A DNA stretch of 64,000 nt. Source: an uncultured Gammaproteobacteria bacterium (GTDB taxonomy: Bacteria; Patescibacteriota; Patescibacteriia; UBA11705). The notes beneath the pieces were generated by a model. The model did no database searches. It was not told where the DNA came from and saw nothing but the letters and a program-made list of their open reading frames with translations. The position numbers and the translations under genes were made by a program. Location of the stretch: contig CAZQEI010000007.1 of the NCBI GenBank assembly GCA_964592195.1, positions 5,082 to 69,081 on the forward strand. The letters are read 5' to 3'. Below are positions 10,586 through 60,203 of the stretch, piece after piece. Position 1 is the stretch's first letter. Each line of letters starts with the position of its first letter.

Positions 10586-10677
10586 GGAAGAAGTAACCGG
10601 TAACCCGTAATCGGTAACCAGTAAAAAGAAATTTGTTCTCGATAACTATAATCAAAAATCTAAAATCTTTAATCTTT

Positions 10678-11877
10678 GTGTCCACGCACGAAACAATTAA
10701 TCTCACCGGCACTGTTACTCCTGAAAATCAAGGGAGTTTAGTTGACGTTAACGAGGAATTGCATAAAACGAGTGAAGCGATTAAACAACAAGGGAGGACA
10801 CCGGAAAATGTGTTGAGGGCTTTAGCCTTGGTAACTAAAATGGGCGATATTGTTAAGCAAGAAAAACAGGAAATTAAAAAAATACATGTAGATTTTAGCA
10901 AGTTTGAAGAATTGGAAAGAATTGAAAATATAAGAGAGGGTGTTTCCAATATTAATTTTTTAGCGCCTGATAGTTTAATCTTTTCTCTAAAACATCTAAC
11001 TGATGATAAAGAGTTGTTGTATTCAATGAAATTGGATGATTCTCAGACGGTCGCACGTATGCTGAATCCTTCAGGTGGGGCGTTATCTGTCAGCCCCGGG
11101 TTGGATTTTATGGACGCTAGCCAATCTGAATTTTTGGTTTATGGTGGTTCTGATGGTTTGCGAGTTTTGGATTGTAGAAAAAAGGGTGAAGAAAATCTTG
11201 TCTATCTGCCACTGAATGGGATTGCATGTAAGTTTGCCATTTCTTTGGATGATGAAGAAGTTATAACTAATGATGAAGATGGCTTCCAGATTATCCATGG
11301 AGTCCATCCTTTTGTATCAAGAAAGTCGGTGCGTTCAAAAGATTTGATTACTGATTCAATTGGTAGAATTGAGTGTGGGGTTAAGTTAAAGAATGGCAAA
11401 ATAGCGTTTGGAACGGCAGAGGGTGGGTTAGTGGTGTATGATATTGGAAATAATAGTATGTTGAGGGTGCGGGTTGATAATATATTACCGAAATATTCAT
11501 TAATCAGTTTAGCGGAATATGATGATAATAAAGTCCGGGGTGTCTATTTGAGAGTGGGCACAACTACTGCCAAATTTGTAAATTTTGACACAGAAACTGG
11601 TGAGGCGATTCCTTGTGGAGATGCGTCGTTTACCGCCTCGACAATGATGCCATTAGAAAATGGTTTAATTGCTTTTGCTTCCGGTTATAACATATCAATT
11701 GTAAATGGAGAAACCAACAAGTTAGTAACACTTTTAAAGGGTAAAAAAAATGGTAGAAGTACTGGTAAAATTGATCAAAGAATAACTGGTATGACTCGTT
11801 TGCCTGATGGACGAATAGTAGTATGTCGTGAAGATGGAAATATTGTTTTTTATGGTGATCCAGATGTTAGCGAGTAG
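10678..11877 (+). CDS. paralog family member 1: conserved N-terminal about 45 aa and C-terminal RLPDGRIV..DG..FYGDPDV, variable repeat-rich core (beta-propeller-like by inference)
   Basis: GTG start gives MSTHETINLTGTVTPENQGSLVDVNEELHKTSEAIK. Repeated xNGxIAFGTxxGxLVVYD blade-like units. Confidence 0.6.
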   Translation: MSTHETINLTGTVTPENQGSLVDVNEELHKTSEAIKQQGRTPENVLRALALVTKMGDIVKQEKQEIKKIHVDFSKFEELERIENIREGVSNINFLAPDSLIFSLKHLTDDKELLYSMKLDDSQTVARMLNPSGGALSVSPGLDFMDASQSEFLVYGGSDGLRVLDCRKKGEENLVYLPLNGIACKFAISLDDEEVITNDEDGFQIIHGVHPFVSRKSVRSKDLITDSIGRIECGVKLKNGKIAFGTAEGGLVVYDIGNNSMLRVRVDNILPKYSLISLAEYDDNKVRGVYLRVGTTTAKFVNFDTETGEAIPCGDASFTASTMMPLENGLIAFASGYNISIVNGETNKLVTLLKGKKNGRSTGKIDQRITGMTRLPDGRIVVCREDGNIVFYGDPDVSE

Positions 11878-12027
11878 GTGCGAGGGATGAGGTATGAGGG
11901 ATGAGCTATGAGCGGTTAGCGTTAAGCGGTAAGCGGTTAGGGATTGGAATTAAGAATTAAGAATAAAAATATAATTGAATTCGTATCACGTTTAACGTAT
12001 CACGCTTTACGAATTACGAATAACGAA
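11878..12027. repeat. degenerate 9-bp tandem array (GAGCGGTTA / GAATTAAGA / CGTATCACG / TTACGAAT units) abutting the next start codon
   Basis: gatgagctatgagcggttagcg...gaattaagaattaagaa...cgtatcacgctttacgaattacgaataacgaa then ATG. Confidence 0.7.
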
Positions 12028-13236
12028 ATGTCATTTAACGAAACAATTAATCTCACCGGCACTGTTGCTCCTGAAAATAAAGGGAGCTTAGTTGACGTCA
12101 ATGAAAAACTGCATGAAACGAGCGAGGCGATTAAAAGACAAGGACCAACGTCGGGAAATGTGTTGCGAGCTTTGGCGTTGGTGGAGGAAATGAGTGGACT
12201 TGTTCGTGAAAATAGTTTTGGTAATTTTGAGCATAAAGATTTTGCCAAGTTCGAAGAGTTGGATCGGGTGGAATTGAGAATGACATGTTTGGAACAAGTT
12301 GATTTTTTACCTCCGCATTATGTTGTCGTCTCCGGCGTGAGTCAAGCCGTGCATGTTCTTGATTTAACCAAAATGGAAGATAGATCTTCTATCGAAGATA
12401 TTTTAGTCACGAAAAATACAAAAAGAGGAGATTTGAGTGAATTAGTCGCTGACGAGAGGGGTAAATTTGATGCTTTGATAAAACTGAATAGTAAGGCAAT
12501 CGTATATTTACAAGATTATACTTGGTATCGCAAAGAAAAATTCAGTCATAATAATAGATATCCCACTCCTTTGCGACCACGATTCATGCTAAATCTCGAA
12601 AATGGAAAGATGTTGACTAATGATACCGACGGATATCAAGTGTTGGATTTTTCAAGCGGCATTAGGGAAACATCAATGCGTTCAGGTTTCAATATACCCG
12701 ATCAAGAACTCGGACAGCTGACATGCGGGATTAGAATGAAAAATGGACGAGTGGCTCTGGGAAATGAATCTGGTGAATTAATGATTGTTGATCCCCATGA
12801 TAAGCAAGCTTTGAAATGGCGCAGTCGAATTACAGATGATACGGATCGTTATTCGGTACAAAACATTGTTGAATATGATGATAATAAATTATTACTTATA
12901 ATTAACGAAAAGAATAAACCGAATAGTGATAATTTGGTTTTGTCTATTGATTTTAATGCCTCTGCTCCTGATTTTGTTCATAAATTTCAATATCGAAATA
13001 CTGTAATGTTGGGCTTGGGAGGTGGTAAAATTGTTTTTCCTACAGGCTGGACATTGAATTTCGAAGATGCGGATAAGTCTTTGATTATTAATGTAATTTC
13101 TAATAAAAAAGATTTTGTGAACGATGGACCTAGTAATGAACATATTGTTTCCATGATGCGTTTGCCTGATGGCAGAATCGTGGCGGGAAGAATTGACGGG
13201 ACGGTGGTGTTTTATGGGGAAGCGAGAGAAGAATAA
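12028..13236 (+). CDS. paralog family member 2
   Basis: MSFNETINLTGTVAPENKGSLVDVNEKLHETSEAIK ... RLPDGRIVAGRIDGTVVFYGE. Confidence 0.6.
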   Translation: MSFNETINLTGTVAPENKGSLVDVNEKLHETSEAIKRQGPTSGNVLRALALVEEMSGLVRENSFGNFEHKDFAKFEELDRVELRMTCLEQVDFLPPHYVVVSGVSQAVHVLDLTKMEDRSSIEDILVTKNTKRGDLSELVADERGKFDALIKLNSKAIVYLQDYTWYRKEKFSHNNRYPTPLRPRFMLNLENGKMLTNDTDGYQVLDFSSGIRETSMRSGFNIPDQELGQLTCGIRMKNGRVALGNESGELMIVDPHDKQALKWRSRITDDTDRYSVQNIVEYDDNKLLLIINEKNKPNSDNLVLSIDFNASAPDFVHKFQYRNTVMLGLGGGKIVFPTGWTLNFEDADKSLIINVISNKKDFVNDGPSNEHIVSMMRLPDGRIVAGRIDGTVVFYGEAREE

Positions 13237-13466: not shown

Positions 13467-14678
13467 ATGTCATTTAACGAAACAATTAATCTCACTGGCA
13501 CTGTTGCTCCTGATAAACAAGGGAGCATAGTTGACGTCAATGAAAAATTGCACGAAACGAGTGAGGCGATAAAAAAACATGGCCGAACGCCGGAAAATAT
13601 TCGGCGAGCTTTGGATTTAGTTCAAGAAATGTCTAGATTAATTCCGAGAGAGATAAATTTCAGAGAATTTAAACACAAAAACATTAAAAATTTTAAAGAA
13701 TTGGATCGGTTACACGATGTTGGTGTTGGTTTGTGCTCGGTGAACTATTTATCACCTGACAAACTAGTGGTGTCTTACGCCCAAGAAGCAAAACCGAAGG
13801 TTATTGATCTTAGTAAAATTGTAAACAGAGATTTTGAACAAGATGTTTTTGTTGAAGATATAAAAACTGATAAAAGAGTTAATATTGCAACTCGAGAATC
13901 GAATAAACAAGATTATTGGTGTGAGTTGAATGAAAATGATTTTGCTTATATAAACAAAGGAAGAATAACTTTTTGCGTTGATGGCGTTTCTAGGCAAATA
14001 TCTTATCCAAGAGGACATAAATTTTGTTTACCACTTGAAGACCATTTTGTATTGACAGACTCTGATTCAGGTTTTTTGGTGGTTGATTATAAAAATCCTG
14101 AGTACCCTATTGTTAAACGATCGGGTGAAATGATGCCTGATTTAACACTTGGAAAATTACACTCAGCAATTAAATTACAAAATGGTAATTTCGTTTTTGG
14201 TACTGATAACAATGAAATTGCGGTTGTAGATTTTAATAATCAAAATGCACCATTGGTTTGGCACGACGAAATGCCAGGTGGATTTGAATCAGATGTGATA
14301 AAAATTGTTGAATATGCTCCAAATAGATTATATGTCATTTCCAGGAGAAGAACTGGAGGAAATGATTTGATGCTGATTGCTGTTGATATTAATACGTATT
14401 CTATGAGATTGAAGGAATCTAGATTCCCCTCGCAGTATATGCTTCCGTTAGGTGATGGTTTTGTTTGTTACGCAGACGGTTACAGACTTTTTATAAAAGA
14501 CTTAAATACAAACAAAGATGGCAAAGTTATTTATGGAGAATTTGGGGAGCCTAGCGCAGGACCAAAAGAAAGCCAAATTACAGATTTGATTCGATTACCT
14601 GATGGGCGACTCGTGGTTAGTAGATTAGATGGGAAGGTAATATTTTATGGTGATCCCGATGTTGATAATGAGGTGTGA
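13467..14678 (+). CDS. paralog family member 3
   Basis: MSFNETINLTGTVAPDKQGSIVDVNEKLHETSEAIK ... RLPDGRLVVSRLDGKVIFYGDPDV. Confidence 0.6.
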   Translation: MSFNETINLTGTVAPDKQGSIVDVNEKLHETSEAIKKHGRTPENIRRALDLVQEMSRLIPREINFREFKHKNIKNFKELDRLHDVGVGLCSVNYLSPDKLVVSYAQEAKPKVIDLSKIVNRDFEQDVFVEDIKTDKRVNIATRESNKQDYWCELNENDFAYINKGRITFCVDGVSRQISYPRGHKFCLPLEDHFVLTDSDSGFLVVDYKNPEYPIVKRSGEMMPDLTLGKLHSAIKLQNGNFVFGTDNNEIAVVDFNNQNAPLVWHDEMPGGFESDVIKIVEYAPNRLYVISRRRTGGNDLMLIAVDINTYSMRLKESRFPSQYMLPLGDGFVCYADGYRLFIKDLNTNKDGKVIYGEFGEPSAGPKESQITDLIRLPDGRLVVSRLDGKVIFYGDPDVDNEV

Positions 14679-14902: not shown

Positions 14903-15508
14903 ATGACAAAGCTATTAATAGGCTCGAATAATCCGGCGAAGTTGGCGACTTTTAAATTGTTGCTGGATGATTATGGTTTTGATGTTGTTTCTCCGAAGGA
15001 AATTGGAATTAACGAAGATGTGGAAGAAACGGGAAAAACTTTTGAAGAAAATGCTCTTTTGAAAGCTAAGTTTTATCATGAGAAATCAGGGTTACCAACT
15101 TTGGCTGATGATGGTGGTATTGAAATCGATGCGCTTGATGGCGCACCGGGTGTTTACTCTCATCGTTGGGCAGGGGAACCACCTGAAGGTGTGGACGTTG
15201 ATCAACATTTGCTCAATACCACCTTGGAAAAAATGAAAGACGTTCCAGCGGAAAAAAGAACGGCTCAGCTGGCTAGCACGTTATGTTTAATTTTACCGGG
15301 AAAAGAACCTGTCTTTGTTAATTCAGGGATAAAAGGCCACATCACTAGCGAACAACAAGCGCCGATTCGACATGGTTTTCCGTATCGTTCAATATTTGTT
15401 TCCGATGATATGGGCAAGTTGTTGGCTTTAGCAACGGAGGAAGACTTGAAACGATTTGATCACCGGAAGAACGCACTGAAGCAGTTGGATAAATATTTGA
15501 GAAGTTAA
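14903..15508 (+). CDS. rdgB: non-canonical purine NTP pyrophosphatase (RdgB/Ham1 family)
   Basis: LIGSNNPAKL N-terminus, about 200 aa, Ham1-like motifs. GGGGAA RBS. Confidence 0.7.
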   Translation: MTKLLIGSNNPAKLATFKLLLDDYGFDVVSPKEIGINEDVEETGKTFEENALLKAKFYHEKSGLPTLADDGGIEIDALDGAPGVYSHRWAGEPPEGVDVDQHLLNTTLEKMKDVPAEKRTAQLASTLCLILPGKEPVFVNSGIKGHITSEQQAPIRHGFPYRSIFVSDDMGKLLALATEEDLKRFDHRKNALKQLDKYLRS

Positions 15509-15901: not shown

Positions 15902-18271
15902 ATGGCTATCAAGACTGCTACTCAGTTGGGCTTTGATGCCATCAATGGGATTGTGCAGGATCGGCGGTTGGCGCGACAAATTTTGTCTTTGACCGCTTTT
16001 CGTATTCAGTTCTCGGAAGGTTTTATTGAATTAATGGCGCCGAATATGAAGGAACGCGCGTTGTTGGAAAAGTTTGTGTTTCACGCTGATTTGAAAGATC
16101 TCGGTCATCGTTTGTTGCAGATTCATCTGGAAAAAATTATTCTGGGAATTATTCTGGACATTTATCAAACTGAGATTTTGAAGCAGTCGATTCCCAAGGA
16201 TAACTTCAAAGTGCTAGTTGATTGTTTGCATCTGGATTTGATGCTTCAAATTCAGCATGAAAAAACAGAATCGGATTCTTCATCTGTGAGTGATGATCAA
16301 TTTGTTATCATCGCGACTGAAGCTGAAGTGAATATTGAAGCTGGCGCTCTGATGGTCGCGCAACATGAACAGAAGATGCTTTCAATCCAGTCGCCAATGA
16401 ATTATTTAGCTTCACCGGAAGGTCAACAAAAATTCAAGGCGTTTATTGAAGAAAAGTTAATGCAGACAGTTCAAGATTTGGTTGATTTACCAAGAATCTC
16501 TGATCCAACCTTGTTCGCTGAAAAACTTCGTTCTGTCAGCTCTATGATGCGTAACAATCTTAAGCAAGATGATTTTATCCAAGCCGCAACTATGAACTTC
16601 GATGAACGTCCGCCCGAGTCACGTCGCGTGATCGCGGAAGTTTTGAAACATCATGGTTTGAATCCGACTCTGTTGGATAATGTCGCATTCCTGTGCTCAG
16701 ATCGTCCGGCAGCAGTGCAAATCGAGTCAATCAATGTGCTGGTTCGTTGTTTGGACAAGACTGTGGATCAAACTGAAACTGATTTAGCTGCGATTTCCTT
16801 GTTGAAAGTCTTTGCCGAAGGCGCAAAAGTGGAAGTGCAAGTGCACGCCCTTCGCGCTTTAGCGAATAACGCGCAGATCATTCTTCAACGTTTGCCAAAT
16901 TTTCTCGAACGCGGTCGCATTCTGGATACGGTTAAAACAGTTTTGCTGGAAAATCCCACGGCGTTTGTTGAAGATGCCAAACGATTGCTGTTGCATTTCG
17001 GTTTCTTCAAGCGTGACCTGGTAGTCAATTCACTCCTTGATGAACTGCAAAATGTTTCTGATTCAGATGTTATTTGCGTTTACCTGGACCTAGTTGAAGA
17101 TTTGGCTGATAATGATCATGATAAAATTCAAGCCTTCAGTAAGCGATGGAAACTGTTTGAAACTGTTCAAGTCACTCGGCCGGATTTGGCGGAAAAGATT
17201 GAAAAACAATTTCGAGCTCAAGTGCCTAATTCATTGTTGAATTTGTTTACTATTTTCCCTGAATTATCAGTTGAAATGAAAGTGTATTTTGTTGGTGTGC
17301 TTGATGACATCTTCGCGGCTAGAATTAAACAATCAGACTCTGATACTTGTCAATTGATTGCCAAAGAGTTTTATCGCTGGGCGGTTAAAGATCACGAAGA
17401 CGTGGCGCGAGCCATTCTTCTCGGTCATACTGTTTACTGTCTGCGGTTGGATAACAACTATTTGAGTCGGTATTGGCCTTGCATTCTTAGAACTTTGACT
17501 TGGTTGCAAACGCAAGAAAATTTTGAAACGCGTTTGTTGGAATCTGAACATTTGCATTGGATGGAAATGGTCGCTTTGTTGGAAAAAAGCCGTGGTTTGG
17601 AAATGAAAATGTGGTTGGCTAAGGTGGCTGTTCAAAAAGCTTGTAAATTGTCATTGACTTCCAGGACGGTAAGCGCGAATCTGGTCGAGTATCAAAAAAG
17701 TTTGACCAATTTGCTTTTGGCGATCAATAAAATGATTGTTGAAATGACGCTTAGTCATAGTGAATTAGTTACGGTGTTCAGATTCTGTCAGGAATTGGTT
17801 CGTTCTCCTTTGGCAAATGAAAAGTTTGTTAACACCATGATTTTGGAAGTTCAGCTGGCTATCTCTGGAAAGTCAGATAACTACAAGAAATTGTTAATCG
17901 TTCTCTTTACCAATCTGGCAGATAGTCCGTTGATTACCGCTAGAATGGTGACTGAATGTTTGCGTGTCTTTATTCTTACTGTGGAACAAGACATTCCACC
18001 GTTACCAGAAAGTGGACCACCAGCCGTACCGGCATCAGTGCCCGAACTGGTGGAAAAAGCTTTTGCTGGTATGGCGGCGATTATTAACGGTGGTCGTTTG
18101 CCAGATGTGGCAAAGTTCAGTCTGAATCGTAAGTTGCGAGAATGGCATAGTCAGCGTCCGAAGGTCATGACCGGTTATATTCCCGGTTGTCAAACAACAG
18201 AAGTGGAAGATGATTTTAAATCTCAATTGGCTCGGTTAATGGATCTGATCAAGGCTACGAATATTAGTTAA
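15902..18271 (+). CDS. large (789 aa) helical-repeat protein of unknown function
   Basis: Long ORF with a strong RBS, Leu-rich and alpha-helical with ARM/HEAT-like composition. No motif recognised. Confidence 0.6.
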   Translation: MAIKTATQLGFDAINGIVQDRRLARQILSLTAFRIQFSEGFIELMAPNMKERALLEKFVFHADLKDLGHRLLQIHLEKIILGIILDIYQTEILKQSIPKDNFKVLVDCLHLDLMLQIQHEKTESDSSSVSDDQFVIIATEAEVNIEAGALMVAQHEQKMLSIQSPMNYLASPEGQQKFKAFIEEKLMQTVQDLVDLPRISDPTLFAEKLRSVSSMMRNNLKQDDFIQAATMNFDERPPESRRVIAEVLKHHGLNPTLLDNVAFLCSDRPAAVQIESINVLVRCLDKTVDQTETDLAAISLLKVFAEGAKVEVQVHALRALANNAQIILQRLPNFLERGRILDTVKTVLLENPTAFVEDAKRLLLHFGFFKRDLVVNSLLDELQNVSDSDVICVYLDLVEDLADNDHDKIQAFSKRWKLFETVQVTRPDLAEKIEKQFRAQVPNSLLNLFTIFPELSVEMKVYFVGVLDDIFAARIKQSDSDTCQLIAKEFYRWAVKDHEDVARAILLGHTVYCLRLDNNYLSRYWPCILRTLTWLQTQENFETRLLESEHLHWMEMVALLEKSRGLEMKMWLAKVAVQKACKLSLTSRTVSANLVEYQKSLTNLLLAINKMIVEMTLSHSELVTVFRFCQELVRSPLANEKFVNTMILEVQLAISGKSDNYKKLLIVLFTNLADSPLITARMVTECLRVFILTVEQDIPPLPESGPPAVPASVPELVEKAFAGMAAIINGGRLPDVAKFSLNRKLREWHSQRPKVMTGYIPGCQTTEVEDDFKSQLARLMDLIKATNIS

Positions 18272-18302: not shown

Positions 18303-18394
18303 TTTGTGAAAGAAAACAATAAAACAACAAAGCAAAAAAGCAATATTAAAACAAAAAACCCTGAATTCTCAGGGTGATTTAATTTTACAAAATA

Positions 18395-19225
18395 TTACTT
18401 TCTCGATTCCGCGTTCCAGGCGTTTACCAGACCAAACTTGGGTCGGTTGATGATCTCGTCGGGCACGCCGAGGTGAGCGGCCAACTGACGGAGGATGATC
18501 TTCCTTCCGGTCGAGTTGGCTCGTTGTGACATGGGAATTCTAACCAATCTATCGAAAGCCGCAAGATAGGGCAACGCTACCGAGACACCAAATTGCTTGG
18601 CATAATAATCAAGCATTGAGAGATGTCGGGTGTAAAGTTCTTCCCAGAATCTTTCAAATACTTCGCGACGAACATCCTCAATATCAGTATCAGGATCAGG
18701 ATGTGTTCCACAAGGAAGCTGATGTTGCCAGTATCCACCGAGAATTTCATCAATCGCATCACCACAAATAACTTGGTCAAAACCTTGCTCCTTCATCGTT
18801 TCAAATAGCACAGAATACATATCAATGGGTTTTTCTTTCATGTTTTTAATCACGACGATATGATTAAAGTCCATTTGATTGAATTCGAACACCTTTGCCA
18901 GAATATTTGCATGGATTAGATCAGGATGATCTTCATGTCCGACAAGTGTAATCGCAGTAAACTTTGCTTCTAATTCCGTAAGTTCTAGAGCTAACACAGA
19001 TGAGTCAACTCCTCCGCTAAAACCTAGAGCGATCGGGCGATTGGTATCAAATGCTTGAATACTGGATAAAAGTGCTTGCTGAAGTAAAAAATCAAGACCT
19101 ATCTTGTTCAGCGGTTTTTCATCTTCCATATTCACAAAGACACTACTAGTTCGAACAATCTTTTCCCAATCACTGGGATGAATGATTCCCGGCATGATGG
19201 TCTCCTGTTTGGGGTTAAAGGACAA
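18395..19225 (-). CDS. stand-alone asparagine-synthetase-like PP-loop (adenine nucleotide alpha-hydrolase) domain protein, no glutaminase domain
   Basis: SGGVDSS PP-loop at about residue 70. CGDAIDEILGGYW resembles the AsnB synthetase-domain motif. 276 aa. Confidence 0.5.
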   Translation of the reverse strand: MSFNPKQETIMPGIIHPSDWEKIVRTSSVFVNMEDEKPLNKIGLDFLLQQALLSSIQAFDTNRPIALGFSGGVDSSVLALELTELEAKFTAITLVGHEDHPDLIHANILAKVFEFNQMDFNHIVVIKNMKEKPIDMYSVLFETMKEQGFDQVICGDAIDEILGGYWQHQLPCGTHPDPDTDIEDVRREVFERFWEELYTRHLSMLDYYAKQFGVSVALPYLAAFDRLVRIPMSQRANSTGRKIILRQLAAHLGVPDEIINRPKFGLVNAWNAESRK

Positions 19226-19270
19226 ACTTGACGTATAACCATATCATGATAAGATAGAAATGTCAATGAT

Positions 19271-19786
19271 TTGACTAACAATATGGACTCAATTTTGTGC
19301 TTATTTCATCATATTTATCACGAAAATGACAAACATGGCGTACACCACGGCCATGAGCATTTTGAGTCTGATTACGAGATTACTCACTGTAAATGTGGTA
19401 AACATAGAATAGACAAAGCTCAGGCTATTGGTCATGATTTTGATGAAAATCAGCACTTAGTGGCTTTTGTTGAATTATGCCCAGAAGGTGGTTGGCATGT
19501 GGAGTCGGGTAAAATTATTTCTATTAATAAACAAGGCAATATCAACTATATTCTAAATTTCTTTCATCATATTCATCACGAAGAAAATGGTCACAAAGTG
19601 CATCATTGTGGTGGTGATCATGTTGGCTTTAATTATCGTATTGAACATTGTCAATGTAATAAACATCAGATTAACCAACCGGAAGCCATTGGTCATGATT
19701 TTGTTGAAAATGAACAACTAGTCACATTTACAGAACCTTGTCCTGAAGGTGGGTGGCATTTAGAGTCTGGAATCATTGATCATTGA
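19271..19786 (+). CDS. His/Cys-rich protein made of two tandem ~80-aa repeats (putative metal-binding)
   Basis: Repeat 1 HHIYHENDKHGVHHGHEHF..HCKCGKH..AIGHDF..CPEGGWHVESG. Repeat 2 HHIHHEENGHKVHHCGGDH..HCQCNKH..AIGHDF..CPEGGWHLESG. Confidence 0.55.
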   Translation: MTNNMDSILCLFHHIYHENDKHGVHHGHEHFESDYEITHCKCGKHRIDKAQAIGHDFDENQHLVAFVELCPEGGWHVESGKIISINKQGNINYILNFFHHIHHEENGHKVHHCGGDHVGFNYRIEHCQCNKHQINQPEAIGHDFVENEQLVTFTEPCPEGGWHLESGIIDH

Positions 19787-19854: not shown

Positions 19855-19881
19855 AACTCGTCTTTTTGACGAGTGTTTTTT
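19855..19881 (+). terminator. rho-independent terminator
   Basis: ACTCGTCtttttGACGAGT followed by T6. Confidence 0.6.
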
Positions 19882-19944: not shown

Positions 19945-20556
19945 ATGAAGCACTTCATTGCAGTGGCGGGAAACATTGGAGCAGGGAAGACAACGTTGGC
20001 GAAAAAGCTGGCTAATCATTTTGGGTTTGAATTGTTTGAAGAGCCATTTGCCATGAATCCTTACTTGGAAAAGTTTTACGCAGATATGAAGACTTGGGCA
20101 TTTCGTTGTGAGTTGTCATTTCTAGGTCATCGTTTACAAAATCATCTTGCGATTGTTCAACGTGAAACATCCGTTATCCAAGATCGTTGCATTTACGAGG
20201 GAGCAGAAGTGTTTGCCAAGAATTTGTATTTGAATAATCATTTGAGTGAACATGACTGGCATACCTTTTGGCATTTGTATGAAAATTTAAAGTTATCATT
20301 ACCTAAACCAGATTTAGTTGTCTATCTAAAATCTTCCAGTCAACGTTGTTTCAATAATTTGCAAGCTAGACAAAGAGATATTGAATTAAATGTCACGCCT
20401 GATTACTTGGCATCATTACACAATTTATATGAACAATGGCGAGCGGAGTTTAATTTGTGTCCGATAGTCGTAGCCGATGCAGATATTTTTGATTTTAAGT
20501 ATGATAGTGAAGCATTTGGTTTATTAGCGGATAAAATAATGGAGTCCTACCAATAA
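19945..20556 (+). CDS. deoxynucleoside kinase (dAK/dGK/dCK family), paralog 1
   Basis: GNIGAGKTT P-loop, DR-x-IYE motif, about 200 aa. Confidence 0.8.
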   Translation: MKHFIAVAGNIGAGKTTLAKKLANHFGFELFEEPFAMNPYLEKFYADMKTWAFRCELSFLGHRLQNHLAIVQRETSVIQDRCIYEGAEVFAKNLYLNNHLSEHDWHTFWHLYENLKLSLPKPDLVVYLKSSSQRCFNNLQARQRDIELNVTPDYLASLHNLYEQWRAEFNLCPIVVADADIFDFKYDSEAFGLLADKIMESYQ

Positions 20557-20655: not shown

Positions 20656-21270
20656 ATGAAACATTTTATCGTTGTATCGGGAAATATAGGCTCAGGCAAA
20701 ACAACGCTAGCGAAAAAGTTGGCGAAACATTTTAATTTTGAAGTTTATCAAGAACCGTTTGAGTTAAATCCGTATTTGGAACAATTTTACAAGGACATGC
20801 GTCAGTGGGCGTTTCATTCTCAAATGGCATTCTTGGCGCATTCGCTCCGTGATCATTTGAATATTTGTAAAAATGAAGTTTCCACCATTCAAGATCGTTC
20901 TTTGTATGAAAATGTGGAAGTGTTCACTCGTAATTTATTTCAATCTCAATATATTAACGAAGAAGATTGGCAGACATTTAGTCATTTATATGAAAATATA
21001 AAAAAGAACTTACCGCCACCGGATTTAATGATCTTTGTAAAAGCTTCACCCGCGCATTGCCATAAAAATGTTATGAAACGTGGTCGGGAAATGGAGAAGA
21101 ATTTGGGATTGTCATATTTAGTAAATTTGGATGAATTGTATAATGCTTGGATTGAATCGTTTTCATTGTGTCCCGTGGTAATGGCTGATGCGGATTTGAA
21201 TGATTTTCGGGATAATGAAGAAAATTTCTCTAATTTAGCTGGCCAAATTGAATCGAGTTTGAATTTGTAG
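20656..21270 (+). CDS. deoxynucleoside kinase, paralog 2
   Basis: GNIGSGKTT and DRSLYE motifs. Roughly half identical to its neighbour. Confidence 0.8.
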   Translation: MKHFIVVSGNIGSGKTTLAKKLAKHFNFEVYQEPFELNPYLEQFYKDMRQWAFHSQMAFLAHSLRDHLNICKNEVSTIQDRSLYENVEVFTRNLFQSQYINEEDWQTFSHLYENIKKNLPPPDLMIFVKASPAHCHKNVMKRGREMEKNLGLSYLVNLDELYNAWIESFSLCPVVMADADLNDFRDNEENFSNLAGQIESSLNL

Positions 21271-29038: not shown

Positions 29039-31375
29039 ATGACCAACTTAGCTAAAAAACTATTACTCGCCACGGTTTTCTACACCGGCGCGGTGGTGCT
29101 CATTGTCGAAGTTTTGGCAGTGCGGATTTTGGCGCCGTATTTTGGGAGCACGATGTATTCGGTGTCCAGTGTTTTGAGTGTGGTGTTGGCTGCGTTGTCA
29201 GTTGGCTATTATTTTGGCGGTAAATGGAGTGATTCTCATCCCAGCAAGAAATTATTTTTTGGAATTATATTTGTCAGTGGTATTTCGTTGATTGCAATGC
29301 AATTATTAACTCTATATGTTGTCCCGGATTGGAGTGAAAGCTTGTCAATGATCACTGGCCCATTGTGGGTTTCAATTATTTTATTTTTTATTCCCAGTTT
29401 TTTACTTGGCACGTTGTCTCCTTTGGTAATAAAATTGTTTAGCGTGGGAGAAACCATGGATACGATTGGCAGTTTAGCGGGAAAAGTTTTTTTCTGGTCA
29501 ACTCTTGGTAGTATTGTTGGGAGTTTACTGTCAGGTTTTGTGTTAATTCCCAGCTTTGGATTGAATAATATTGTTCGCGGTTTAGCCATCAGTTTATTAT
29601 TAATCGGAGCCATTGGTTTGTTTATTGATAATAAAAAGAAATTAATTGGTTCGTTGATATTGGTGATTGTTTTGTCTGGAGCTAGCTTGTTAATGGTGGA
29701 AAAAGTAGAAGCGTTGATTTCTTATGAAGGCATTTACCAACGCATTAGCGTGATTGATTCTGATTATAAAGGCACACCGGCCAGGCTATTGATGTTAGAC
29801 AAAAATCCCTCCTCTGCCGTAGATAAAACTGATAATTCTGTGATTTTTACCTATACCAAATATTATAAACTGTATAAATATTTTGCCCCGGAAATGAAAT
29901 CAGCGCTTGTTCTGGGTGGCGGAGCGTTCATTGTGCCGGAGGCTTTAGTGAATAGTTCACCAGAGGTAACCGTGGAGGCGGTGGAGATCGAGCCATCGCT
30001 TTTTAATTTGGGAAAAGAATATTTTGGTGTCAAAGACAGTGATCGTTTAATTGTGAGTAATGATGATGGTCGAGTATATTTAAAACAAACCAAGAAAAAA
30101 TATGATTTGATTTTCGGCGATGTGTTTCATTCACTTTATGGTGTGCCAGTGCAATTTACTACCAAAGAATTTTACGTCTTATCAAAAAGTAAATTGAATA
30201 ATAATGGGGTAATAATGGTCAATGCTATCGGTCAGCTTTCCAATCGCGCGCCTTCGTTTCTAATGTCGGAAATTAAAACTTTCCGTTCGGTTTACCCAAA
30301 TAGCTATTTCCTCGCTGTCTATTCACCATCTTCAAGCAAGTTACAAAATGTCATGATGATTGGTGTGAATGGTGATCAAGCTTTTGATTGGAATAGTATT
30401 AAAGAAAAAGAATTAATTGATTTAACCAAAAATAAATTAGTAGATTTGTCAGCTTATGATTGGGGCAACTACGAATTATTAACTGATGATTTTGCGCCTG
30501 TTGATTATTATAATGCTATAACTCTGCAAGAAGTGGAAAAAGCGAGACATAATTATATTAGCGGGGAAGAAGCCTTGGCTTCAGTGGCGAAACAAGTGTC
30601 TTTTGGCCAACGATATTTAGGTAGTGATGGGCATCAGGCAGAAGTTGAATACATAACAAAGCAATTGAATAAATTTACCCTCAATGTTCAACGTCAAGCA
30701 TGGGAGGAAACTTCCCCGGCGGGTGTGAAATATGAATTTCGCAATGTGCTGGCGCGTTTTTGGCCGGAGAATAAACAACGAATTATATTTGTGACACATT
30801 ATGATACCAAGAAAATTGATAGTGTGAATTTTGTCGGTGCCAATGATGGAGCCTCGGGTGTGGCAGTCATGTTGCAAATGGCGGAATTTTTAAATTTGGT
30901 GGATGAAGAACCAAATGTTGGTGTTGATTTGTTGTTTGTGGACGGTGAGGAAGGTTGGCCAGGTGAGGAACAGGCCACTATTGGAATTGGCGCTAAAAAG
31001 TTTGTAACAGATTTAAATAATTATTATATAGAAAAACCGGTTGAAGTGATTAATATAGATTTAGTGGGTGAGAAAGACGCACAATTTTTCCAAGAAAAAG
31101 ATTCTTTGCAATTTGATAAGAGCAAACATGAAAAGCTTTTTCAAGTTGGTAACGAATTATATGGTGATATGTTCATGGCAATGCCTAAATATCAGATATG
31201 GGATGATTTTACCGCTTTCAATCAACTTGGAATACCGGCGCAATTGTTAATCGATTTTGATTACAAGTATTTTCATACTGCCAAAGATAGTTTGAACAAA
31301 ATTGATTCAATGAGTTTAGCAAATACTGGTAATGTATTATTACGTTATCTCTATACTGAATATGGCAATCATTGA
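29039..31375 (+). CDS. fusion protein: polytopic membrane spermidine-synthase-like (aminopropyltransferase fold) N-terminal domain plus M28-family peptidase-like C-terminal domain
   Basis: About 7 TM helices, then LVLGGGAF...DLIFGDVFHS (methyltransferase/SpeE-like), then NDGASGVAVMLQ and FVDGEEGW (M28 motifs). Confidence 0.55.
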   Translation: MTNLAKKLLLATVFYTGAVVLIVEVLAVRILAPYFGSTMYSVSSVLSVVLAALSVGYYFGGKWSDSHPSKKLFFGIIFVSGISLIAMQLLTLYVVPDWSESLSMITGPLWVSIILFFIPSFLLGTLSPLVIKLFSVGETMDTIGSLAGKVFFWSTLGSIVGSLLSGFVLIPSFGLNNIVRGLAISLLLIGAIGLFIDNKKKLIGSLILVIVLSGASLLMVEKVEALISYEGIYQRISVIDSDYKGTPARLLMLDKNPSSAVDKTDNSVIFTYTKYYKLYKYFAPEMKSALVLGGGAFIVPEALVNSSPEVTVEAVEIEPSLFNLGKEYFGVKDSDRLIVSNDDGRVYLKQTKKKYDLIFGDVFHSLYGVPVQFTTKEFYVLSKSKLNNNGVIMVNAIGQLSNRAPSFLMSEIKTFRSVYPNSYFLAVYSPSSSKLQNVMMIGVNGDQAFDWNSIKEKELIDLTKNKLVDLSAYDWGNYELLTDDFAPVDYYNAITLQEVEKARHNYISGEEALASVAKQVSFGQRYLGSDGHQAEVEYITKQLNKFTLNVQRQAWEETSPAGVKYEFRNVLARFWPENKQRIIFVTHYDTKKIDSVNFVGANDGASGVAVMLQMAEFLNLVDEEPNVGVDLLFVDGEEGWPGEEQATIGIGAKKFVTDLNNYYIEKPVEVINIDLVGEKDAQFFQEKDSLQFDKSKHEKLFQVGNELYGDMFMAMPKYQIWDDFTAFNQLGIPAQLLIDFDYKYFHTAKDSLNKIDSMSLANTGNVLLRYLYTEYGNH

Positions 31376-41590: not shown

Positions 41591-43384
41591 ATGGCTAATA
41601 GGAAGGGGACTACTGAGGTCAAGGCCAAAGTAGAAAAAAACAAATCAAATAAAGGTAATCTCGAAGGTCAAACCAAAGCCAAGGTTATAACGCAGGAAGT
41701 GAAACCCGAGGCAGCGGCCAAGAAGTTGACTGACGAAAGTTTGGGAAAGGTATTGCTCGAGCAGAGTTACATCTCGGCTGATGATTTGAAGGCAGCGGAA
41801 AATTATACAAAGTCCGGGCGCGGTAAGCTCACGGAGTTTTTATTATCCAATGGAATTTTGAATAAAGATTTATTGGGCCAAGCTGTAGCTGAGTATTACA
41901 AGGTTCCTTATGCTGATTTAAATACTAATACTCCAAAGCGCGATCAAGTTTTAAAAATTCCAGAATCCTTGGCCATGCAATATCGGGCAGTCTTATATCG
42001 TGAAGATGCGAAAACTGCAGTTATTACCACTGATGCTTTGGTGGAAATGCCACCACTATCAGGTTTTCAACCTTTATTCCCAGGGAAAAAGGTGGTTTTG
42101 GCATATTCAATTTCTGATGATATTGATTTTGTCCTCGGTTACTACAAAAAGTCTCTCGAAACGCAATTCTCAAAGATTATCGAAAACCAAGCTAGGATTG
42201 CGCCTGAGTTGTTGGAAGTTATTTTCAAGGACGCTTTGGCACAAAAAGCATCAGATATTCACTTTGAACCAAACGAAAAAGATGTCTTAGTCCGCTTCAG
42301 AGTTGATGGTCTTTTGTATGCCGCTGGTCATTTACCGGTCAAATTTTATCAAAACATTTTAAATCGCGTCAAAGTTTTGAGCAATATGCGCATTGATGAG
42401 CACTATGCAGCTCAGGATGGTGCTATTCGTTTCTTTGATGATAATCACGAGAAGGTAGATATGCGTGTGTCAGTCAGCCCTACTATCGAAGGTGAAAAGA
42501 TTGTTATTCGTTTGCTCAGTCATTATATCCAAAACTTTTCTTTGGCAGATTTAGGTTTGTCTGATGCTCATCGTGAAATGGTGGCCAAGGCTGCGGCGAA
42601 ACCTTTTGGTATGATTCTCGTTACCGGTCCGACTGGATCAGGCAAGACTACAACTTTGTATTCATTGTTGAAACTGTTAAATAGCTCGGATGTTAATATT
42701 ACTACTATTGAAGACCCGGTAGAATATCGATTGGCCGGTGTCAATCAGATTCAGGTAAATGCTGCTACAAATTTAACTTTTGCGAAAGGTTTGCGTTCTA
42801 TTGTGCGTCAAGATCCGGATATTATTTTGGTGGGCGAAGTTCGTGATACGGAAACTGCTGAAATTAGTGTGAATGCGGCTTTGACCGGACATTTATTATT
42901 ATCAACTTTCCATGCCAACGATGCAGCCTCAGCTATCCCTCGTTTGTTGGATATGGGTGTAGAACCATTCTTGATTTCTTCTACCTTGGAAATAATTGTG
43001 GCACAGCGTTTAGTTCGTCATATTTGTGATAATTGTAGAGTTAGTATGATTATGACGAAGAAGCAAGTGGAGGATAAATTTACCGGCGCCAGTAAGTATT
43101 TTACTGAAGAGCAAAATACGGTTTATGAAGGCAAGGGTTGTCATTTATGTAATAATACTGGCTATCGCGGACGTACTGCTATTTTTGAAGTTATTACCAT
43201 TACTCCAGAAATGGAAGAGTTAATTGTTAAAAGTCCATCGACCAAAGAAATTTGGGATTTGGCCAAAAAACAAGGTGCCAGCTCAGTCTTTGAAGATGGT
43301 ATTTTGAAAATTCGGGAGGGAATTACCACGATTGATGAATTGTTGCGTGTAGCTGAACCGCCAGTTGAACAAGTTGTTAGTTAA
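41591..43384 (+). CDS. pilB: type IV pilus / T2SS assembly ATPase (PilB/GspE family) with Lys-rich N-terminal extension
   Basis: T2SSE_N-like domain, Walker A GPTGSGKTT, Asp and His boxes, tetra-Cys CDNC...CHLC. Confidence 0.9.
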   Translation: MANRKGTTEVKAKVEKNKSNKGNLEGQTKAKVITQEVKPEAAAKKLTDESLGKVLLEQSYISADDLKAAENYTKSGRGKLTEFLLSNGILNKDLLGQAVAEYYKVPYADLNTNTPKRDQVLKIPESLAMQYRAVLYREDAKTAVITTDALVEMPPLSGFQPLFPGKKVVLAYSISDDIDFVLGYYKKSLETQFSKIIENQARIAPELLEVIFKDALAQKASDIHFEPNEKDVLVRFRVDGLLYAAGHLPVKFYQNILNRVKVLSNMRIDEHYAAQDGAIRFFDDNHEKVDMRVSVSPTIEGEKIVIRLLSHYIQNFSLADLGLSDAHREMVAKAAAKPFGMILVTGPTGSGKTTTLYSLLKLLNSSDVNITTIEDPVEYRLAGVNQIQVNAATNLTFAKGLRSIVRQDPDIILVGEVRDTETAEISVNAALTGHLLLSTFHANDAASAIPRLLDMGVEPFLISSTLEIIVAQRLVRHICDNCRVSMIMTKKQVEDKFTGASKYFTEEQNTVYEGKGCHLCNNTGYRGRTAIFEVITITPEMEELIVKSPSTKEIWDLAKKQGASSVFEDGILKIREGITTIDELLRVAEPPVEQVVS

Positions 43385-51923: not shown

Positions 51924-52397
51924 TTATCTAGTAACTTCGATTTCATCAGCTTGTTCTGGGTTGCAGGCTCCAACAGTTAAGGCACCTGAAACATCTCTTT
52001 TAATATAGTAATCAGTAACAGTTGAGTCACCTGATGATGGATCGACTGGGACTTTGGGTAGATATTTTGCGTCAATCAAATCTTCTATGTCCGCACAACT
52101 GGGAGAAGTAGTGTGAGCCGTACATCCGATATCACCACCCACTGAGCAAGTGCCAATCATATAGTATGTGTCAACTAGTAAACTACCTATTGAGGTTGGG
52201 AAGTTACCATTGTTGTCAACTTGCCGATATTTAGCGGCATCGAGGACTGCTGTGACATCTGACCAGCGATTCGCATCGCGGGCTTGTTCAAACCGAGTGA
52301 GTGGGTCGAGCATGACGAAAATAATTATCGCCAAGATAGCGATGATCCCAATCACAATTAAAAGTTCAATTAAAGTGAACCCTTTTTTGTTTTTCAT
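51924..52397 (-). CDS. type IV pilin (prepilin class III), 157 aa, copy 1
   Basis: MKNKKG|FTLIELLIVIGIIAILA. Four Cys in the C-terminal half. Confidence 0.8.
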   Translation of the reverse strand: MKNKKGFTLIELLIVIGIIAILAIIIFVMLDPLTRFEQARDANRWSDVTAVLDAAKYRQVDNNGNFPTSIGSLLVDTYYMIGTCSVGGDIGCTAHTTSPSCADIEDLIDAKYLPKVPVDPSSGDSTVTDYYIKRDVSGALTVGACNPEQADEIEVTR

Positions 52398-52573: not shown

Positions 52574-53047
52574 TTAACGACTAACAGTGATGGCCGCGCC
52601 ACCTTCAGGATCGCACGCACCGACGGTTAAAACACCGGTGGAGGCTCTCATGATGTAGTAATCGGTTTCAACAGCAGTGCCGGTCGAGGGATCTAGTGGT
52701 ACTGCGGATAAATGGCCGGAGGTAACTAGACCGGTCAAATTCGCACATGCGGCTTGGGTGGTTTGAGCAGTACAACCAGAATCACCACCGGTGGCACAAG
52801 TGCCGATAGTGTAATAATTACCGGCAGTTAATCCGCTTATGGTGGCAATATATGAACCGCCATTGTCAACTTGGTTGAGTTTAGCGGCATCTAGTACTGC
52901 TCCGATATCAGCCCAACGCGTTGCGTCTCGAGCATCTTGGAAGCGGGATAACGGATCGAGCGCTACGAATACGATAACTGCCAAAATAGCAATAATCGCA
53001 ATTACGATGAGCAATTCGATCAAGGTAAAACCTTTTTGTTTTCTCAT
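52574..53047 (-). CDS. type IV pilin, 157 aa, copy 2
   Basis: MRKQKG|FTLIELLIVIAIIAILA. Near-identical to copy 3. Confidence 0.8.
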   Translation of the reverse strand: MRKQKGFTLIELLIVIAIIAILAVIVFVALDPLSRFQDARDATRWADIGAVLDAAKLNQVDNGGSYIATISGLTAGNYYTIGTCATGGDSGCTAQTTQAACANLTGLVTSGHLSAVPLDPSTGTAVETDYYIMRASTGVLTVGACDPEGGAAITVSR

Positions 53048-53172: not shown

Positions 53173-53646
53173 TTAACGGCTAACAGTAATGGCTGCGCCA
53201 CCTTCAGGATCGCACGCACCGACGGTTAAAACGCCTGTAGATGCTCTCATGACATAATAATCGGTTTTAGAGGCTGTACCGGTGGAAGGATCCAATGGCA
53301 CGGCTGACAAATGTCCAGAAGTGACCAAACCGGTCAAGTCTGCGCAAGCGGCAACAGTAGTTTGAGCTGTACAGCCTGTATTTCCACCAGTTACACAAGT
53401 GCCAACGGTGTAATAAGTACCGGCAGTTAATCCGCTTATAGCGGCAATGTAGGAACCACCATTATCAACTTGGTTGAGTTTAGCGGCATCTAATACTGCT
53501 CCGATATCAGCCCAACGCGTTGCGTCTCGAGCATCTTGGAAACGAGATAAGGGATCGAGTGCCACGAACACGATGACCGCCAAGATAGCGATGATCGCAA
53601 TCACGATGAGCAACTCAATCAATGTAAAGCCTTTTTGTTTTCTCAT
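53173..53646 (-). CDS. type IV pilin, 157 aa, copy 3
   Basis: Identical N-terminal 80 aa to copy 2. Substitutions cluster in the C-terminal half (AAISGLTAGTYYTVGTCVTGGNTG vs ATISGLTAGNYYTIGTCATGGDSG). Confidence 0.8.
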   Translation of the reverse strand: MRKQKGFTLIELLIVIAIIAILAVIVFVALDPLSRFQDARDATRWADIGAVLDAAKLNQVDNGGSYIAAISGLTAGTYYTVGTCVTGGNTGCTAQTTVAACADLTGLVTSGHLSAVPLDPSTGTASKTDYYVMRASTGVLTVGACDPEGGAAITVSR

Positions 53647-57464: not shown

Positions 57465-57541
57465 TGGTCGGGGTGAGGGGACTTGAACCTCCGACCTCAC
57501 GCACCCGAAGCGTGCGCTCTAGCCAACTGAGCTACACCCCG
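57465..57541 (-). tRNA. tRNA-Pro (anticodon CGG)
   Basis: Hand fold of the minus strand: C1-G72 acceptor CGGGGTG/CACCCCG, D arm GCTC-AGTTGGCTA-GAGC, anticodon stem CACGC/GCGTG, loop TTCGGGT, T-loop TTCAAGT, A73-CCA encoded. Confidence 0.8.
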
Positions 57542-57665
57542 ACGATAATTTAATTGATAATGGCGGTGCTATGCATCGGATACATGGCGTGCCATCCGTA
57601 GCGCAGGCTTTATCTTGCCCTTCTTCGCATAAAGCTACGAAGGGCATCCTTCGCTGCGCGAAGGA

Positions 57666-57753
57666 TGGTGGGCGGGGAGAGATTTGAACTCTCATGAGGT
57701 TGCCCCCACTGCGCTCTGAACGCAGCGCGTCTACCAGTTTCGCCACTCGCCCA
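57666..57753 (-). tRNA. tRNA-Leu (anticodon CAG), long variable arm
   Basis: GGGCGAG-TG-GCGAAACTGGTAGACGC, anticodon stem CTGCG/CGCAG, loop TTCAGAG, variable arm 17 nt, T arm GAGAG-TTCAAAT-CTCTC, ACCA. One A-C mismatch in the acceptor stem. Confidence 0.75.
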
Positions 57754-57906
57754 TGCAATTTTAAATTCTAAGCACTAAATTTGAAATTCTAAAAAATATG
57801 TGGAGTGCCATTCGTAGCTCGCGTCATTGTTATTGTCACGAACTACTATATTGGTCCTCCTTCGCTGAAGCTACGGAGGACATTCTTCGCTCTAGCGAGC
57901 GAAGAA

Positions 57907-57984
57907 TGGTGGACCTGAGGGGAGTCGAACCCCTGACCTCTGCAATGCGAATGCAGCGCTCTAGCCAAACTGAGCTACAGGCCC
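57907..57984 (-). tRNA. tRNA-Ala (anticodon CGC) with G3-U70
   Basis: Acceptor GGGCCTG/CAGGTCC includes G3:U70. Anticodon stem CTGCA/TGCAG, loop TTCGCAT, T arm AGGGG-TTCGACT-CCCCT, ACCA. Confidence 0.8.
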
Positions 57985-58127
57985 ATGATTTATTGTAACG
58001 TAGCGAAGGTGCTGGGCAAACTGCTTGTCCCGCAGAAACGAAGTGTATGCGGGAAGCTACAGGCCAATGATGTTTGTTAATGGTCGGGCTGATCCCGCTG
58101 AGCGGGACGGCCTCATTTATCTCATGT

Positions 58128-58204
58128 TGGTCGGGCTGACTGGACTTGAACCAGCGGCCTCATGCACCCCATGCATGCGCTCTAGCCAACTGAGCTACAA
58201 CCCG
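58128..58204 (-). tRNA. tRNA-Pro (anticodon GGG)
   Basis: C1-G72 acceptor CGGGTTG/CAGCCCG, anticodon stem CATGC/GCATG, loop ATGGGGT, T arm GCTGG-TTCAAGT-CCAGT, ACCA. Confidence 0.8.
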
Positions 58205-60202: not shown

Positions 60203-60203
60203 T

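Follow-up and report, generated by a model that had tools for sequence, protein, structure and literature searches.

The stretch of DNA analysed here (the window) spans 64,000 nucleotides (nt) of contig CAZQEI010000007.1, from an uncultured bacterium of the Patescibacteriota, and carries at positions 18,395 to 19,786 two divergently transcribed genes, one for a synthetase domain of the AsnB superfamily and one for a small protein rich in His and Cys. The two genes almost certainly work together, because the same pair recurs as a unit in bacteria of the candidate phyla radiation (CPR), in DPANN (Diapherotrites, Parvarchaeota, Aenigmarchaeota, Nanoarchaeota and Nanohaloarchaeota) archaea and in some of their phages. 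We tentatively propose, with a probability of about 0.42, that they encode a dedicated two-protein system, composed of an adenylating ligase of the AsnB superfamily and a metal-loaded adaptor or specificity subunit of a new family. The enzyme superfamily is known, and the partner domain and its obligate pairing with the enzyme appear to be undescribed: curated models were found neither for the enzyme clade nor for the partner domain, and a literature search on the motifs and on the pairing of AsnB-like and His-rich proteins in CPR and DPANN found nothing relevant.

The features of the pair, in window positions, are the following:

18395..19195, minus strand: AsnB-superfamily synthetase-domain gene, 266 amino acids (aa); the open reading frame (ORF) extends to a TTG at 19225 (276 aa); Shine-Dalgarno (SD) sequence AGGAG
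19283..19786, plus strand: His/Cys-rich protein gene, 167 aa; the ORF from a TTG, 19271..19786, gives 171 aa
19001..19018, minus strand: PP-loop SGGVDS, residues 60-65 of the 266-aa protein, read from the sequence
18731..18763, minus strand: GDAIDEILGGY motif, from the sequence and a hidden Markov model alignment to ASNS
19283..19537, plus strand: repeat 1 of the small protein (degenerate), from the alignment and ligand counts across the family
19538..19783, plus strand: repeat 2 of the small protein (full consensus), from the alignment and an AlphaFold2 (AF2) model with a predicted local distance difference test score (pLDDT) of 79
19228..19266, both strands: back-to-back divergent promoter-like elements, within the intergenic spacer
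18358..18375, minus strand: terminator-like hairpin and T-run 3' of the AsnB-like gene
19856..19874, plus strand: terminator-like hairpin and T-run 3' of the small gene

The two divergent ORFs that an initial annotation of this DNA had reported, 18395..19225 (minus, 276 aa) and 19271..19786 (plus, 171 aa), are both present. The true starts are almost certainly ATG 19195 for the enzyme and ATG 19283 for the small protein, since P0060 (266 aa) and P0001 (167 aa) in the database begin there, with 100% identity and coverage, and an AGGAG precedes ATG 19195 by 7 nt. The 87-nt spacer between the two ATG codons contains the promoter-like elements TTGACA-17-TATGGT on the minus strand and TTGACG-16-TAAGAT on the plus strand, with a TG preceding the -10 in both. 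The minus-strand -35 hexamer TTGACA (TGTCAA on the plus strand) is invariant in the four divergently arranged loci (4/4). A metal-responsive operator was considered for this region and rejected: no inverted repeat was found, and the conserved elements were the -35 hexamer and the SD only.

Among 185,579 species genomes, 39 loci were retrieved via the small protein, and the window is the 40th locus. An AsnB-like gene was directly adjacent in 30 of these 40 loci, and look-ups anchored on the enzyme found an adjacent His-rich small gene in all of the further clade members (8/8), so that the conservation of the pair in related genomes, which the initial annotation had marked for checking, proved to be strong. 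Three arrangements were observed. The small gene precedes the enzyme gene in the DPANN-labelled loci, where the two always overlap, mostly by 8-11 nt, and in three bacterial loci, where they are 18-27 nt apart. In most CPR loci the enzyme gene comes first, with a gap of mostly 40-100 nt, and the window shares the divergent layout with its closest relatives (L035, L047 and L049).

Both families are similarly rare (about 60 clusters each) and are co-inherited, as their pairwise distances correlate (Mantel r 0.47, 0/5000 permutations). The small protein is the more conserved of the two, with a mean identity of 55% versus 35% for the enzyme. The association has an informative asymmetry: all the enzymes examined have a partner, but in 10 loci the partner has no enzyme nearby. 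A conserved third gene was not found by all-against-all clustering of the ORFs within 6 kb in the 40 loci, by a Pfam census of 141 flanking genes, or by Pfam searches of 10 operon-coupled neighbours, which were heterogeneous.

The AsnB-like enzyme

The 266-aa protein is a true synthetase domain of the AsnB superfamily. It matched Pfam Asn_synthase (PF00733) with an E-value of 6.7e-16 (59.3 bits against a cut-off of 21), in a domain that begins at about residue 50, and Pfam and NCBIfam scans found no GATase or N-terminal nucleophile (Ntn) glutaminase domain with its Cys2. A profile of 30 orthologues compared with the Protein Data Bank (PDB) retrieved human ASNS (1.3e-24), E. coli AsnB (3.8e-18) and CarA (5.2e-14), together with the hydroxyamidotransferase TsnB9 (7ylz; 3.5e-9), beta-lactam synthetase (1.9e-7) and NadE (2e-6). 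The AF2 model of the enzyme had a pLDDT of 94, and its best Foldseek match was the C-domain of AsnB (1ct9; E 9e-9), with a query TM-score (TMq) of 0.65-0.68; the TMq to NadE, TtuA and TilS was 0.3-0.4. The initial annotation had described a glutaminase-less AsnB-type synthetase domain with an SGGVDSS PP-loop and a GDxxDEILGGY motif; both motifs are read directly from the sequence, and the Pfam, profile and fold matches uphold the assignment.

Residues S60, G62, D64 and S65 of the PP-loop were invariant in sets of 30 and of 58 homologues, and SGGxDS, D146, D149, E150 and K253 were conserved in about 51 members of the clade. The last four residues align with E364, D367, E368 and K466 of human ASNS, which are essential or bind the substrate amine (PMC6748925). 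From this conservation it is concluded that the enzyme is probably competent for adenylation. Since it has no glutaminase domain, the nitrogen nucleophile would have to come from free ammonia, an amine or a partner, either in solution or bound.

The residues that recognize aspartate have a different fate. Human ASNS binds aspartate through D400 and R403 (PMC6748925), and in E. coli the TTxR loop (T322, T323 and R325) is implicated in the formation of beta-aspartyl-AMP (PMC5775275). In the clade the D400 position is a His in 50 of 51 members (His191 of the window enzyme), this His being specific to the clade, as outgroups have D or M; the R403 column varies, and the clade alignment lacks the TTxR loop. 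Because these aspartate-binding residues are replaced, free aspartate, the substrate of AsnB, is probably not used by the enzyme. Thus, the C-domain of AsnB and human ASNS (PF00733; 1ct9 and 6gq3) is the best match, sharing the fold, the PP-loop, the acidic cluster and the catalytic Lys, whereas the window enzyme differs in lacking the Ntn domain, in the replacement of Asp400 by His, in the unconserved Arg403 and TTxR positions, and in its pairing with a His/Cys-rich protein. The clade comprises proteins of 224-290 aa, and its boundary is seen as a sharp fall in bit score from 146 to 110 towards ordinary archaeal asparagine synthases.

Several specific identities were considered and rejected. 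The AsnB equivalog model TIGR01536 gave 49.6 bits against a cut-off of 267.1, and the lasso cyclase model NF033561 gave 16.1 against 300. NadE and TilS, either of which would have overturned the initial annotation if the neighbour were also unlinked in other genomes, were not borne out, with 25 bits against 63.65 for TIGR00552 and 15.1 against 93.6 for TIGR02432, the latter over the PP-loop only. Matches to LarE, QueC and MnmA were likewise limited to the PP-loop region, with scores far under the cut-offs. A defence system was likewise rejected, as the PADLOC models returned 0 families for the enzyme and 0 for the small protein. In PHROG the matches were to an unannotated AsnB-like family and, weakly and in the PP-loop region, to PAPS reductase and NAD synthetase.

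Beta-lactam synthetase, the carbapenam synthetase CarA and TsnB9 are AsnB-like enzymes that work without glutamine; they belong to the same superfamily, share the adenylation chemistry and have been repurposed for carboxylates other than aspartate, but they carry an N-terminal domain of about 200 aa (degenerate or active) and are encoded in antibiotic gene clusters, whereas the proteins of the window clade are of the short length given above and have no biosynthetic cluster. The analogy with lasso or beta-lactam-type enzymes drawn in the initial annotation is unsupported as a family membership. NadE is of similar size, has a single domain and a PP-loop and follows an ammonia-dependent logic, but only the PP-loop region matches, and its TMq was 0.34-0.39 compared with 0.65-0.68 for AsnB.

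These data bear on one alternative, namely that the two genes are unrelated neighbours, a divergent housekeeping asparagine or NAD synthetase that uses ammonia and a generic His-rich metal buffer. A weak Pfam NAD_synthase match (E 3.7e-5, residues 64-130 only, over the PP-loop region) and the presence of a NadR-like salvage gene in a reduced genome would agree with it. However, the adjacency recurs, in three arrangements, in bacteria, in archaea and on phage-like contigs, the families are co-inherited, the NadE, AsnB and TilS equivalog scores are far under their cut-offs, the aspartate-binding residues are replaced, and the genes are far too rare for a housekeeping role (39 loci in the 185,579 species genomes, and 82 representatives of the small domain among 1.84 billion proteins in an exhaustive profile search). 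A pair of unrelated housekeeping genes is thus effectively excluded.

The His/Cys-rich domain within and outside the pair

The small protein contains 26 His and 8 Cys in 167 aa, which amounts to 15.6% His, compared with a median of 1.9% across the window ORFs with 150 aa or more (n = 41). It is a tandem duplication of a domain of about 80 aa, its two halves being 57% identical (E 5e-31), and includes the motifs HCKCGKH and HCQCNKH and two copies of CPEGGWH. Repeat 1 has lost two near-invariant ligands, as HHIHH has become HHIYH and VHHCGG has no Cys. The tandem duplication seems to be peculiar to the window genome, while the relatives carry a single domain in proteins of 80-130 aa, some of them with an N-terminal hydrophobic anchor. 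The initial annotation had described a two-repeat protein that it could not place in a characterised family, and had suggested that the His-rich repeats be compared with known Ni/Zn-binding or HMA-like domains; this description holds, since no match, to a described metal-binding or zinc-finger family or to any other, was found in Pfam, NCBIfam, the PDB sequences, or the PDB and BFVD folds.

A family search with the small protein gave 59 matches, with E-values down to 1e-25, indicating that the His/Cys pattern is conserved far beyond chance. The consensus of the domain is LFHHIHH..H.VHHCGG.H...Y.I.HC.C.KH.I....GH......F.E.CPEGGWH.ESG, in which 16 His/Cys positions (12 His and 4 Cys) are conserved over about 135-140 aligned domain instances. 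H54 and H78 are present in 139/139 instances and C55 in 131/139, and at one of the conserved Cys positions 18 of 137 instances have a His, as in a typical ligand swap. From these conserved residues and the Cys-to-His replacement, the domain is predicted to bind several metal ions, most likely Zn. In the monomer model the N-terminal HHxHH...HHC segment had a pLDDT of only 53-59. All the relatives that have an organism name in the source belong to Patescibacteria/CPR or to DPANN archaea; the distribution is patchy across the two domains of life, and yet bacterial and archaeal homologues are more than 50% identical.

The domain also occurs without the enzyme, in the 10 loci mentioned above and in two large phage-like contigs from IMG/VR, and as part of multidomain proteins. 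A subfamily of pairs with divergent partners was found on phage-like contigs. These occurrences are listed here with positions in the respective contig, where available:

L044 5989-7060 and L045 6001-6243: free-standing His/Cys proteins of 80-86 aa, on contigs of 435 kb and 229 kb, respectively, with no AsnB-like gene
P0204 (L055 6001-7401): fusion to SET and topoisomerase IB, on a phage-like contig of small co-directional genes
P0224: fusion to topoisomerase IB
P0252: fusion to a LigD phosphoesterase and ATP-dependent ligase, with a degenerate copy of the small domain
P0203, P0214, P0254 and P0055: fusions to MYND fingers (zf-MYND)
P0057: fusion to a methyltransferase
L041 3585-4714, L053 4537-5720 and L056 2585-3705: divergent pair subfamily, on phage-like contigs

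In L044 the small gene overlaps by 23 nt a downstream gene that resembles a DNA primase (a Toprim-like motif recognized by sequence, with no family search), and in L045 it lies among phage structural genes. In L031 the small gene overlaps a downstream gene that reads, by sequence motif, as a class I methyltransferase.

The partners of L041, L053 and L056 keep only the N-terminal W.YL.HH.H...HHC segment, followed by an unrelated C-terminal part, and still precede the enzyme gene; a further degenerate variant precedes P0106. Because the divergent partners retain the N-terminal segment only, this His motif is the element shared by all the partners of the enzyme, and the C-terminal putative zinc module is separable from it. 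The enzymes of this subfamily have a C in place of G at position 153, within GGY, and the genes around these pairs include N6/N4 DNA methyltransferases, dCMP deaminase, uracil-DNA glycosylase (UDG), PhageMetallopep, NT5C and HD families.

The retention of H54-C55 in all three divergent partner types, together with the near-invariance of these residues, raises the idea that the thiol of the partner HHC motif traps the acyl-adenylate in the form of a thioester, like a carrier protein, or serves as a donor or relay of sulfur in the manner of LarE or TtuA, to give a thioester, thiocarboxylate or thioamide product. Many PP-loop enzymes carry out sulfur chemistry, LarE, TtuA and NcsA are weak structural or sequence relatives of the enzyme, and in L051 the pair is followed by co-directional genes for a cysteine desulfurase and NifU. 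Nevertheless, we know of no sulfur chemistry in the AsnB family proper, such a desulfurase neighbour was seen in one locus only, repeat 1 of the window protein lacks this Cys, and the Cys lies amid many probable metal ligands, so that a role as a Zn ligand is simpler. A sulfur-based reaction is therefore considered very unlikely.

Proposed mechanism and alternatives

In the proposed two-protein system, a heteromeric amidoligase, the 266-aa PP-loop ATP-pyrophosphatase would adenylate a carboxylate and then join the activated carboxylate to ammonia or an amine, supplied from solution or by a bound partner, the substrate being something other than free L-aspartate. The small His/Cys protein, loaded with metal (most likely Zn), would be an obligate partner involved in specificity, targeting or delivery of the nucleophile. 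Its N-terminal HHxHH...HHC segment, the most conserved part, would probably dock on or near the synthetase active site, close to the clade-specific His191, whereas binding of the target (a macromolecule or a ligand) would fall to the beta-rich zinc module at the C-terminus. Both the physical interaction of the two proteins and the assignment of the subunit that contacts the substrate are predictions. There are weak hints that the target of the small protein is in DNA or nucleotide metabolism.

Some observations weigh against this proposal. No natural fusion of the enzyme and its partner was found among the sequences collected, and residue conservation is the sole basis for the predicted metal ions. 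The DNA and nucleotide theme is made up of scattered items (the fusions, the primase-like gene, DnaX, AlkD-like genes, a deoxynucleoside monophosphate (dNMP) kinase, LOG and deoxynucleoside kinase (dNK) neighbours), and lacks statistical backing, since genes of this kind are plentiful in CPR genomes. In addition, an amino-acid-like or peptide substrate would be compatible as well with the acidic cluster, which in ASNS binds the alpha-amino group, and the precedent of asparagine synthetase (AS)-like enzymes that act on adjacently encoded ribosomal peptides favours a different role for the small protein.

In that role, which constitutes the main rival to our proposal, the small protein would be the substrate or scaffold of the enzyme: a carboxylate, from a Glu or Asp side chain or from the C-terminus, would be adenylated and then amidated or cross-linked as a lactam or isopeptide, yielding a matured metalloprotein, a product akin to RiPPs (peptides made by the ribosome and modified after translation), or a scaffold-borne product. 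As in lasso peptides, nitrilobacillins and fosfazinomycin, the enzyme gene adjoins that of a small ribosomal product; PesC of the nitrilobacillins acts on a peptide C-terminus ending in R(V/T)DN, and FzmA of fosfazinomycin acts on the C-terminus of FzmZ, followed by a methyltransferase. The enzyme also retains the acidic pocket that binds an amino group beside the activated carboxylate, the domain has an invariant Glu (in ESG) and a near-invariant one (in F.E.C), one DPANN subclade has a conserved ...IKNDN end, and in L031 and P0057 the neighbour or fusion partner is a methyltransferase instead of the enzyme.

However, the tails after ESG, though short, vary in sequence, and no last residue is conserved across 115 members (those of the window clade end in IIDH, EMK or QVVIVE), and the idea of a C-terminal scaffold was dropped because the tails are not conserved. 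The conserved Glu residues are missing from the partners of L041, L053 and L056, yet the pairing with the enzyme persists. Over its whole length the domain is better conserved than the enzyme, in contrast to RiPP cores, and it is found alone in phage-like contigs and within multidomain enzymes. No conserved protease, RiPP recognition element (RRE) or exporter accompanies the pair: leader proteases and RREs were absent from the 25 families of the flanking-gene census, which lists those shared by at least 2 of the 141 genes and not single occurrences, and an ABC exporter was near the pair in 4 of 40 loci. Lasso cyclases, TsrC, PesC and FzmA share with the window enzyme the location beside a gene for a small ribosomal product, but here that product is a folded, highly conserved domain with an unconserved C-terminus, which also exists alone or fused. 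In view of both sets of observations, we regard the small protein as a possible but doubtful substrate.

Another alternative starts from the phage-like contigs, and holds that the pair is a mobile module of CPR, DPANN and phages whose target is DNA, RNA or the pool of nucleotides (it might, for instance, amidate a carboxylated base or nucleotide), with the zinc domain binding nucleic acid. It is consistent with the presence of the pair on phage-like or IMG/VR contigs (L053, L056 and L040, the last being the same as L046), in the vicinity of N6/N4 DNA methyltransferases, dCMP deaminase, UDG and PhageMetallopep, and with the fusions of the domain to topoisomerase IB and LigD and its overlap with a primase-like gene. 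Neighbours of the pair related to nucleotides or DNA repair include two dNK genes and Ham1 in the window, NT5C, HD and dCMP deaminase in L041, a dNMP-kinase-like gene in L004, and AlkD-like genes in L031 and L049. Mobility would also agree with the patchy distribution over two domains of life, between which identity exceeds 50%. Against this, the flanking-gene census showed no enriched neighbour family, the PADLOC defence models had no match, the window pair sits among ordinary chromosomal genes, and to our knowledge no enzyme of the AsnB family acts on nucleic acids. An action on nucleic acids or nucleotides is thus judged unlikely. Decidedly unlikely, in our estimate, is the more specific combination in which an AsnB-family enzyme has been retargeted to a macromolecular or nucleotide substrate through a previously unknown multi-zinc His/Cys domain that circulates among CPR, DPANN and phages and is found there in fusions with topoisomerase IB, ligase D and SET/MYND modules as well; if true, it would provide the first member of the asparagine synthetase family directed to nucleic acids or chromatin, as well as a new zinc-binding fold.

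For the adaptor role that we favour, general parallels are offered by LysW, an amino-group carrier that works with the ligase LysX, and by Trm112, an activator of several methyltransferases. Like them, the small protein is conserved, presumably metal-binding and coupled to an enzyme, and may work with enzymes of more than one type (an AsnB-like one or a methyltransferase in this case). Searches revealed no similarity to either in sequence or fold, though, and LysX is an ATP-grasp rather than a PP-loop enzyme, while the small protein lacks the conserved acidic C-terminal tail of LysW.

A large share of microbial diversity belongs to CPR bacteria and DPANN archaea, in which the majority of lineage-specific genes lack an assigned function. 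The pair is a compact and experimentally tractable two-gene unit, which joins a well-understood chemistry (carboxylate adenylation and amidation) to a new, ligand-dense domain. Identification of the substrate would widen the reaction scope of the asparagine-synthetase superfamily. It would also establish a new metal-binding domain, which DNA enzymes of phages and of cells make use of, and might uncover a trait that passes between ultra-small bacteria, ultra-small archaea and their viruses.

Other genes of the window and of pair-bearing contigs

Some additional features were found on contigs that carry the pair. In L051, a contig of archaeal appearance, a 698-aa product encoded at 1-500, 4.5 kb from the pair, matches GATase and Asn_synthase as well as Diphthami_syn_2. 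LAGLIDADG intein-type insertions were found in a GDP-mannose-dehydratase-like gene of L040 (420-2564) and in the NifU gene of L051 (7391-9133). In L057 a 42-aa ORF ending in CKQCSSCHGCR (1159-1287), which may have arisen by chance, separates a degenerate small-domain gene from the AsnB-like gene; the surroundings are a sugar-modification cluster that includes DegT, a glycosyltransferase and two methyltransferases.

The gene set of the window is reduced and CPR-like, including DNA polymerase I, isoleucyl-tRNA synthetase, phosphoribosyl pyrophosphate synthetase, two dNK genes, Ham1, a NadR-like gene and type IV pilus genes, along with many orphan proteins. Nine window proteins were found in the protein collection, all of them singletons at 90% identity. 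Immediately downstream of the small gene is a tandem of dNK paralogues on the plus strand (19945-20556 and 20656-21270; Pfam dNK, E ~1e-54 each), and a Ham1/ITPase gene maps to 14903-15508. The dNK pair and Ham1 may be part of a nucleotide-salvage neighbourhood, any link of which to the gene pair is hypothetical. Four large plus-strand ORFs, at 15902-18271, 13467-14678, 11944-13236 and 10633-11877 (789, 403, 430 and 414 aa, respectively), had no Pfam match and are lineage-specific orphan proteins.

A 778-aa protein (29039-31375, plus strand) combines a spermidine-synthase-like domain and an M28 peptidase domain. Three tandem 157-aa paralogues are encoded on the minus strand (51924-52397, 52574-53047 and 53173-53646), and the two covered by the scan each carry, at the N-terminus, the prepilin methylation motif of type IV pilins. 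T2SSE and T2SSF genes were found at 58517-61478, with a second T2SSE at 41591-43384. A cluster of four tRNA genes is located on the minus strand at 57465-58204, with the identities Pro-CGG, Leu-CAG, Ala-CGC and Pro-GGG.

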